Positions 34,922 through 35,059 of a DNA stretch of 64,000 bases are shown here, one piece after another (within the stretch, counting starts at the first letter, position 1; each line of letters begins with the position of its first letter). Below the pieces are notes generated by a model. The model made no database searches and was not told the origin of the DNA. It saw only the letters and a program-made list of their open reading frames with translations. Origin of the DNA: an uncultured Bdellovibrionales bacterium (lineage in GTDB: Bacteria > Patescibacteriota > Minisyncoccia > Moranbacterales > UBA9337); NCBI GenBank assembly GCA_964605525.1, contig CAZSCV010000004.1, forward strand, positions 38,667 through 102,666, given 5' to 3'. A program made the position numbers and the translations under genes.

Positions 34922-34948
34922 TTGACAATACTTTAAATCTGATATAAT
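34922..34948 (+). promoter_or_regulatory. sigma70-like promoter (TTGACA-15nt-TATAAT)
   Basis: ttgaca at 34922-27, tataat at 34943-48; the spacer is short at 15 nt. Confidence 0.35.
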
Positions 34949-34954
34949 CTCCGA

Positions 34955-35059
34955 ATAAGCTGACAGGTGCCCGGCTCTGGGAAACCAGTGAACGGCGGCC
35001 GTAACTATAACGGTCCTTGGACAAATGTCCTATCCAAAAACCTGTCAGCTTTTTATTTT
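34955..35059 (+). ncRNA. candidate small structured RNA
   Basis: GC-enriched ~100-nt segment closed by an 11-bp long-range stem (agctgacaggt…acctgtcagct) followed by ttttatttt; internal hairpins ctgggaaaccag, ggccgtaactataacggtcc, ggacaaatgtcc. Flanked by R2 and R3. No family assigned. Confidence 0.35.

Follow-up and report, generated by a model that had tools for sequence, protein, structure and literature searches.

The stretch considered here, referred to as the window, comprises 64,000 nucleotides (nt) of contig CAZSCV010000004.1 from the genome assembly GCA_964605525.1 of an uncultured bacterium, placed by GTDB within the Moranbacterales of the Patescibacteriota. Between two of its reverse strand genes, encoding an MFS transporter (33692-34834, -) and a TrmB-family regulator (35173-35916, -), lies a small unit on the forward strand (34922-35059, +) in which a sigma-70-type promoter is followed by a 95 nt segment predicted to fold into a four-way junction and then by a run of thymines. 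Judged by its sequence and predicted structure, this segment is a helix-by-helix miniature of helices 67-71 in domain IV of 23S rRNA, with helix 69 intact. With a probability of roughly one half, the locus is proposed to be a small, independently transcribed RNA gene, the product of which, a structural miniature of about 100 nt, would act as a mimic in trans.

The promoter (34922-34948, +), which the original prediction had already identified, consists of a -35 hexamer, TTGACA (34922-34927), a 15 nt spacer and a TATAAT hexamer (34943-34948); a TG at 34940-34941 makes the latter an extended -10 element as well (TGaTATAAT at 34940-34948, conforming to TGnTATAAT). Matches to TTGACA-N14-19-TATAAT are found twice in the 64 kb window, compared with an expected count of 0.11, the second perfect pair of hexamers being located upstream of a forward strand open reading frame (ORF) that starts at 38910. 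The automated promoter scan requires a spacer of 16-18 nt, and did not call the promoter of the unit because its spacer falls outside this range. Eight nucleotides separate the promoter from the stem that closes the RNA, and transcription is predicted from these positions to start at approximately 34955-34957, at the foot of that stem. At the other end, the T-run TTTATTTT (35052-35059, +) directly abuts the stem and presumably marks the 3' end of the RNA. The terminator that had been proposed here is present in its parts, as a 12 bp stem followed by UUUUUAUUUU, but by the usual criteria it falls short of a canonical intrinsic terminator: the 'loop' is a folded domain of 71 nt where the scan allows 8 nt, and the terminator scan lists none on the forward strand at the unit. 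Shortly beyond, the convergent TrmB-family gene has its own terminator hairpin (35071-35100, -), comprised of 13 pairs and a T-run on the reverse strand; when read on the forward strand the pairing of this hairpin is limited to a weak core, and it may provide the RNA unit with a back-stop.

The unit and the TrmB-family gene are convergent, the 3' end of the gene being the one nearer to the unit, and no same-strand ORF of at least 100 amino acids (aa) is found downstream of the unit before 36380, both as originally described. Hence it does not form the 5' untranslated region (UTR) of a same-strand gene, as a riboswitch or cis-acting leader would. Nor is it positioned upstream of a cognate ribosomal protein gene, as a ribosomal protein leader would be: its neighbours encode the TrmB-family regulator and the MFS transporter, and the closest ribosomal protein gene, that of L19 (38017-38586), lies on the opposite strand at a distance of 3 kb. 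It does have, at the level of sequence, the promoter of its own that would be expected of an independent small RNA (sRNA) gene. Two ORFs cross it, one of 67 aa on the forward strand, which had been thought the only one, and another of 62 aa on the reverse strand, neither having a match in Pfam. The element had also been called GC-rich, and its G+C content is indeed 52% compared with 38% for the window, but this is unremarkable by itself as around 4.6% of 97 nt windows are equally rich or richer.

The RNA segment extends from 34957 to 35051, and its predicted four-way junction encloses three hairpins, in agreement with the original description. Its minimum free energy on the forward strand is -43.8 kcal/mol (z = -4.7), with 0 of 200 dinucleotide shuffles being as stable; since the reverse strand folds about equally well (-43.5 kcal/mol, z = -4.4), folding energy does not discriminate between the strands. 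The long-range stem closing the junction, P1, is formed by AAGCUGACAGGU (34957-34968) pairing with ACCUGUCAGCUU (35040-35051), and at 12 bp is one pair longer than had been counted. Within it, P2 (34969-34996) has the layout GCC-[CGG]-C-U-CUGG-GAAA-CCAG-U-G-[AAC]-GGC, in which a GAAA tetraloop (34981-34984) sits on an intact 4 bp stem, and P3 (34997-35015) reads GGCCGU-AACUAUA-ACGGUC. The remainder of the enclosed domain (35016-35039) consists of a 3 nt linker, the 12 nt hairpin P4 (GGAC-AAAU-GUCC, 35019-35030) and a 9 nt single strand, UAUCCAAAA (35031-35039).

Each of these parts can be set against 23S rRNA, numbered here according to rrlH of Escherichia coli MG1655 with the structure taken from the Rfam large subunit (LSU) consensus on E. 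coli 1800-2010. The 5' strand of P1 includes GAC-CAGG-U (nt 6-12 of the mini-RNA), equivalent to G1828-U1834, within which C1830-C1833 form the 5' strand of helix 67, and its 3' strand includes CCUG (nt 85-88), equivalent to the opposing strand G1972-G1975 with compensating changes. P2 represents the base of helix 68, with GCCCGGCUCUGG (nt 13-24) corresponding to 1835-1846 and CCAGUGAACGGC (nt 29-40) to 1894-1905; these strands are identical to a bacterial 23S sequence at 10/12 and 12/12 positions, and the GAAA loop (nt 25-28) replaces the 47 nt of distal helix 68 (1847-1893). P3 is helix 69, GGCCGUAACUAUAACGGUC (nt 41-59), identical to E. coli 1906-1924 with the conserved G.U pair included. 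It is followed by CU (nt 60-61; 1925-1926) and a U, after which P4 stands for the 36 nt of helices 70 and 71 (1927-1962), and the unpaired junction strand that comes next is 9 nt long in both RNAs (1963-1971 in 23S).

The four-way junction and the position at which helix 67 is paired are hence common to the mini-RNA and to E. coli 1828-1975, but the former spans 95 nt rather than about 148, having a tetraloop for distal helix 68, a stub hairpin for helices 70 and 71, and a helix 67 that is re-coded and extended into the closing stem of 12 perfect pairs. Each deletion stops precisely where a helix does, and the gap is closed by a GNRA loop in one case and a 4 bp hairpin in the other. The rRNA-like part is in the sense orientation on the forward strand, the same strand that carries the promoter and the T-run, and it is only on this strand that the GAAA loop and the conserved G.U pair of helix 69 are present. 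The unit is remote from any rRNA gene, and comparison with 23S using blastn revealed no further rRNA-like piece in the window.

The correspondence is also evident in database matches. A metagenome search with a chimeric query translated from the RNA in six frames led to a 23S gene, L030, the lone confirmed locus among the matches listed, and R1, a covariance model derived solely from the RNA of the window, matches it with 38.5 bits (E = 9.6e-9). At the matched site L030 reads ...GCUGACGCCUGCCCGGUGCUGG-[47 nt]-CCAGUGAACGGCGGCCGUAACUAUAACGGUCCU..., and the 33 nt at 34985-35017 are 100% identical to it in blastn, compared with 94% identity to E. coli 1894-1926. Each of the 5,426 complete E. coli genomes has matches to the RNA, a median of seven, and those listed fall in 23S genes. 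These genomes, like the plasmid and phage records that bear rRNA, align solely through nt 25/29-61 of the query (35-75 in one case), the matches being annotated as 23S wherever the record carries annotation; one weak plasmid match (E = 0.8) is at chance level and inside a relaxase gene. Across phages, plasmids and E. coli genomes, no place covers 80% or more of the query.

Base pairing was counted on the 23S structure in an alignment of the one mini-RNA with the spliced 23S sequences of E. coli, Fusobacterium, Priestia, Deinococcus and Rhodobacter. Overall, 92% of cells are paired, a figure that, with a single mini-RNA in the alignment, attests to compatibility with the rRNA fold and to one set of compensated changes rather than to family-level covariation. 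In helix 69 all six pairs are invariant in 6/6 sequences, including the G.U. In the helix 68 base 96.7% of cells are paired, the sole two unpaired cells resulting from substitutions in the mini-RNA at 34975 and 34976. Helix 67 is paired in 100% of cells even though three of its four pairs are altered on both sides, through two C-G to G-C flips unique to the mini-RNA and one G-C to A-U change shared with Fusobacterium. In 500 shuffles, the share of paired cells, the tally of cells altered on both sides and the covariation score of the real alignment were never attained, and its tally of pairs altered on both sides was attained in 3/500; when the register is slid, pairing falls to 12-56%.

The unit is consequently homologous to helices 67-69 in sequence and secondary structure, yet is no rRNA gene: it attains neither the gathering score nor the full length of one. 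The scan of Rfam 15 suggested alongside the original prediction recovered no known family at the locus when the whole window was searched at the gathering threshold, the LSU family (RF02541) included, and at E <= 10 returned just three chance-level hits across 34800-35200, with no LSU, riboswitch or other described aptamer, SRP, 6S or tRNA-like match. The LSU model, which gives E. coli 1800-2010 a score of 214.9 bits, thus reports nothing at the unit. Several candidates were considered and rejected from the sequence, namely SRP RNA, 5S rRNA, a tRNA-like element, a group I intron fragment, hammerhead and twister-type ribozymes, and cobalamin and SAM-I aptamers. The earlier view of a stand-alone sRNA rather than a riboswitch agrees with the transcription signals and with the lack of a riboswitch match, but the RNA is not an anonymous one. 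Resemblance to a fragment of a known RNA, such as SRP or 6S, had been named as grounds for abandoning that view; such a resemblance formally exists, although to large subunit rRNA. The 23S match therefore shifts the question from whether this is a novel sRNA to why a miniature helix 69 domain should be separately transcribed.

No homologue of the unit was found, the genome and metagenome collections having been scanned only before the diagnostic truncation of helix 68 was known. Searches with blastn, nhmmer and model R1 detected no copy beside the homologues of the TrmB-family gene with 70-83% identity (P0002, P0003, P0006 and P0014), although the contig of the 83% identical relative, P0002, ends 40 nt past the gene and so does not cover the downstream region, nor beside homologues of the MFS gene with 72-79% identity (P0122, P0124, P0129 and P0130). 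These relatives do not share the gene order seen downstream of the TrmB-family gene or that around the MFS gene. The P2 pattern occurs in IMG/VR as two chance matches in coding DNA, and a P2-type pattern occurs in genome contigs as eight chance matches in GC-rich genomes, the unit itself not being among them, which places the source genome outside the GTDB representatives; the pattern of the copy with truncated helix 68, TGCCCGG-N6-36-AACGGCGGCCGTAACTATAACGG, has 0 matches in IMG/VR. Translations of the spurious ORFs of the RNA retrieved nothing at E <= 10 from a database of 5.8 billion proteins.

The locus is not an assembly artefact. Six contigs from other samples carry it with 100% identity, and two MEGAHIT contigs assembled at k119 and k139 (L002 and L003) cover the entire unit; a chimeric assembly is excluded because these k-mer lengths far exceed the 33 nt core, such that single reads must link the core to both flanks. 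Contigs L004 and L001 stop inside the unit, at 34988 and 35036 respectively, near or within the 33 nt core, which is the behaviour expected of an rRNA-like repeat in an assembly graph. The TrmB-family protein encoded beside the unit has a 100% identical counterpart in 'Parcubacteria group bacterium Athens0714_16', a member of the Candidate Phyla Radiation (CPR).

Beyond the MFS gene, the reverse strand encodes a SocA/Panacea antitoxin (32890-33384) and a PHP-domain protein (31972-32769). A 46 aa ORF (32757-32897, -) overlaps the 3' end of the SocA/Panacea gene by 8 nt, and together the two resemble a PanA-type toxin-antitoxin pair in which the toxin is small. Directly before the start of the MFS gene (TTG at 34834 or ATG at 34816) is a hairpin (34839-34876, -), CUCCAAAA...UUUUGGGAG followed by U7, the 3' arm of which holds the sole GGGAG able to act as a ribosome binding site for this gene. 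A -10-like TGgTATTAT ends 6 nt ahead of the ATG, for which reason the MFS mRNA might be leaderless. The position of the unit between two copies of a repeat, as first reported, was also found: a dispersed box of about 40 nt has four copies (31905-31944, 34869-34910, 35101-35142 and 36775-36808, all +), the middle two of which bracket the unit and are 232 nt apart. The box ends in TTA(G/A)AACTGGATTT(AT), each copy lies within a few tens of nucleotides of a terminator hairpin or T-run, and the copies R1 and R3 have AAAGCTTTGTT in common just downstream. Seen in contigs of the same species and not in relatives, it may represent an intergenic repeat particular to this species, a hot spot for insertions or a site for a regulator.

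The wider window is ordinary chromosome, including gyrB, uvrA/B/C, efp, ssb, rpsF, rplS, rpsA, cmk, tilS, ftsH, sigma factors, RNase Y, clpP, tig and nusA. Two UvrA paralogues of 955 and 959 aa (15023-17890 and 19361-22240, both -) flank uvrC, with uvrB nearby. A group I intron (37382-37613, -; 86 bits in Rfam) is situated amid the four tRNA genes of a cluster at 36963-37857 (-), and probably interrupts one of them. A match to the GAG variant of the c-di-GMP-II aptamer (6619-6711, -), scoring 43.1 bits against a gathering threshold of 40, is found upstream of camelysin-like (Peptidase_M73) and lamin-tail-domain genes on the reverse strand. Finally, a reverse transcriptase of 346 aa (RVT_1; 55850-56890, -), with unannotated flanking ORFs in housekeeping surroundings, could belong to a retron, a diversity-generating retroelement or a defence system.

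Helix 69 forms the central bridge between the ribosomal subunits, and its contacts include the tRNAs in the A and P sites, factors for release and recycling, several antibiotics and at least one toxin. Were the unit to work as proposed, a stable RNA of about 100 nt would be transcribed from the forward strand and display helix 69 and its basal junction away from the ribosome, where it would bind, titrate or be acted upon by a factor that normally recognises this site on the 50S subunit. The preferred candidates for such a partner would be the S4-domain enzymes that modify helix 69, an RluD-type pseudouridine synthase or a TlyA-type methyltransferase. RluD and TlyA both use an S4-type domain, and TlyA touches the junction beneath helix 69; this contact would explain the retention of the junction when distal helix 68 and helix 71 have been dropped. 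RluD forms the pseudouridines at 1911, 1915 and 1917 and is among the few modification enzymes retained in CPR bacteria (PMC12641178), and methylation of helix 69 by TlyA shapes the pocket in which capreomycin binds (PMC11580936). The next preference would be toxins, nucleases or antibiotics directed at helix 69, against which the RNA would serve as a decoy: this helix is bound by aminoglycosides (PMC2875026), and in eukaryotes it is cut by the bacterial RNase Ribocin (PMC13189344). A drug or toxin decoy, although speculative, is conceivable because the divergently oriented MFS gene is weakly efflux-like and has homologues in variable regions with integrases and toxin genes. The 30S interface would come third. 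The more specific proposition, that a free-standing module of helices 67, 68 and 69 regulates or protects translation in trans, as a silencing or quality control device working through the 30S subunit or helix 69 factors, or else as a decoy, is put forward tentatively, as a possibility judged distinctly less likely than not.

A number of points weigh against a functional mimic. As no homologue was found, there is no covariation among mini-RNAs, the pair counts comparing one such RNA with genuine 23S sequences, and contigs of the same species, being 100% identical over kilobases, are uninformative on constraint. The unit is absent beside relatives of the TrmB-family gene (70-80% identity) and of the MFS gene (72-79%), hence it may be restricted to a single species and be young; likewise, the 33 nt of identity to 23S could reflect a recent origin instead of selection. 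The substitutions at 34975 and 34976 break two of the ten helix 68 pairs in the 23S register, and the combination of stem and T-run is noncanonical as a terminator under the rules of the scan. No candidate partner adjoins the unit: an RluD-like gene encoding S4 and PseudoU_synth_2 domains (41021-41956, -), the presence of which in the region speaks in favour of the mimic, is 6 kb away with nothing to connect it to the unit, and its best equivalog, RluD, is matched with 186 bits, below the cut-off of 351.

Several of these observations would suit a non-functional relic, in which the remnant of a decayed or duplicated 23S gene happens to lie behind a promoter-like sequence and any transcript has no role. 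The perfect 33 nt identity fits such a recent origin, as do the restriction to one population, with no homologue near the TrmB or MFS relatives or in the searched collections, and the poorly syntenic surroundings with accessory-type genes for the MFS transporter and the SocA/Panacea antitoxin. However, decay predicts one contiguous, randomly damaged piece, rather than the removal of 47 nt and 36 nt at helix boundaries with both gaps capped, a helix 67 with compensation on both sides in a stem extended to 12 perfect pairs, ends that fall right at a perfect extended -10 promoter and at a T-run, and a window otherwise devoid of rRNA-like pieces; a relic is accordingly considered unlikely, while being the strongest of the alternatives. 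Less likely again is an RNA directed at the 30S subunit that would dock on h44, h24 and h45 of free 30S and hinder subunit joining in hibernation or quality control. The retained RNA carries the 50S side of bridges B2a (the helix 69 loop), B2b (1836-1837 and 1922) and part of B2c (helix 67): the kept segments, 1828-1846 and 1894-1926, contain the B2 bridge nucleotides, helix 69 and 1836-1837 being unchanged, and the 12 bp P1 would point toward the position of the 50S body. Against this, the deleted helix 71 (bridge B3) and distal helix 68 (B7a) would have added affinity for 30S, nucleotides 1832-1833 of B2c are altered, and isolated helix 69 has a weak affinity for the 30S subunit.

The end of the similarity to 23S at 1926 is close to insertion sites of mobile introns, as CPR 23S genes frequently contain LAGLIDADG-encoding group I introns at positions 1917, 1931 and 1952 (PMC11270868). 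This raises the prospect that the unit is, at the DNA level, an intron-less 1917 homing site (1906-1926) serving as a target or decoy for a LAGLIDADG endonuclease and, at the RNA level, a mimic of ligated exons that could absorb excised introns through reverse splicing. The L030 23S gene is itself interrupted at 1931, right after ...CCUAAGGU. In the insert, which follows ...ACGGUCCUAAGGU from 420-442 of L030 onward, an internal guide, GCCUUAG, complements the exon end, and the insert is thus a group I intron at an I-CeuI/I-ShaI-type site (PMC11270868). Nevertheless, neither a DNA decoy nor a reverse splicing sink needs a promoter, a closing stem or trimming that preserves helices, the unit contains around 20 of the 22 bp of a 1917-type site and under half of a 1931-type site, and there is no intron or endonuclease gene near it, making this link very improbable. 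Two further explanations are scarcely credible. A genuine piece of fragmented rRNA, supplied in trans to a 23S rRNA without helices 67-71, would accord with a self-contained domain closed by helix 67 and with the unusual rearrangement of CPR rRNA genes through insertions (PMC11270868), but distal helix 68 and helix 71, universally conserved elements that contact tRNA or form bridges, are missing, the lengthened closing stem has no 23S counterpart, the Rfam LSU model is silent on the unit, and the unit lies among ordinary genes remote from rRNA. A riboswitch or leader of the MFS gene (33692-34834, -) would make use of the reverse strand fold, which is nearly as good (-43.5 kcal/mol, z = -4.4), and the element does lie upstream of that gene on its strand, with the terminator-like hairpin at 34839-34876 between them. 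Nonetheless, the rRNA similarity is sense on the forward strand, to which the GAAA loop and helix 69 G.U are exclusive, the TrmB terminator occupies the place where a reverse strand promoter would be needed and no good one is present, and the element is absent at the MFS homologues of relatives.

The trans-acting mimic has partial parallels among known systems. Leaders of ribosomal protein operons (L1, L10, L20, S8, S15 and others; Meyer 2018 review, cited in PMC11109978) similarly consist of extra-ribosomal RNA copying a local rRNA structure for an rRNA-binding factor. They differ in being cis-acting 5' UTRs of the mRNA that is regulated, usually with a small protein-binding motif and little sequence identity. 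The mini-RNA, by contrast, is a separate unit with no downstream ORF, retaining a whole junction and 33 nt of identity. The 50S region that it copies, helix 69 at the centre of the subunit interface, binds few proteins. The proposed logic of a stable, separately transcribed imitator of a ligand is shared with sRNAs that sequester factors, such as 6S, which resembles open promoter DNA, CsrB/RsmZ and the decoy GlmY (PMC4152352). To these the mini-RNA is unrelated in sequence and structure, having no Rfam match, and the ligand it would imitate, and sequester a factor from, is a part of the ribosome. Pieces of rRNA expressed in the laboratory as antibiotic decoys can titrate drugs directed at the ribosome. 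Isolated helix 69 hairpins likewise keep their ability to bind ligands, as found for aminoglycosides (PMC2875026). Those are laboratory constructs, whereas the mini-RNA is a natural chromosomal unit that keeps the junction below helix 69. The searchable literature yielded no account of a free-standing RNA that mimics an rRNA domain or helix 69.

Even as a relic, the locus would serve as a warning for annotation: the Rfam LSU model is blind to it and assemblers break contigs within it, hence standard pipelines would fragment such a unit and leave it unannotated. The rRNA mimicry known in bacteria is that of cis-acting ribosomal protein leaders, and a separately transcribed miniature of the helix 69 junction would represent a different use, belonging to a class of sRNA mimicking parts of the ribosome of which no description was found. 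If functional, it would provide structural biologists with a naturally minimised, self-folding scaffold of helices 67, 68 and 69. In CPR bacteria, with their reduced ribosomes and complements of biogenesis factors, it would signify control at the RNA level of an enzyme or factor that recognises helix 69, a natural decoy or a new ribosome-silencing RNA.

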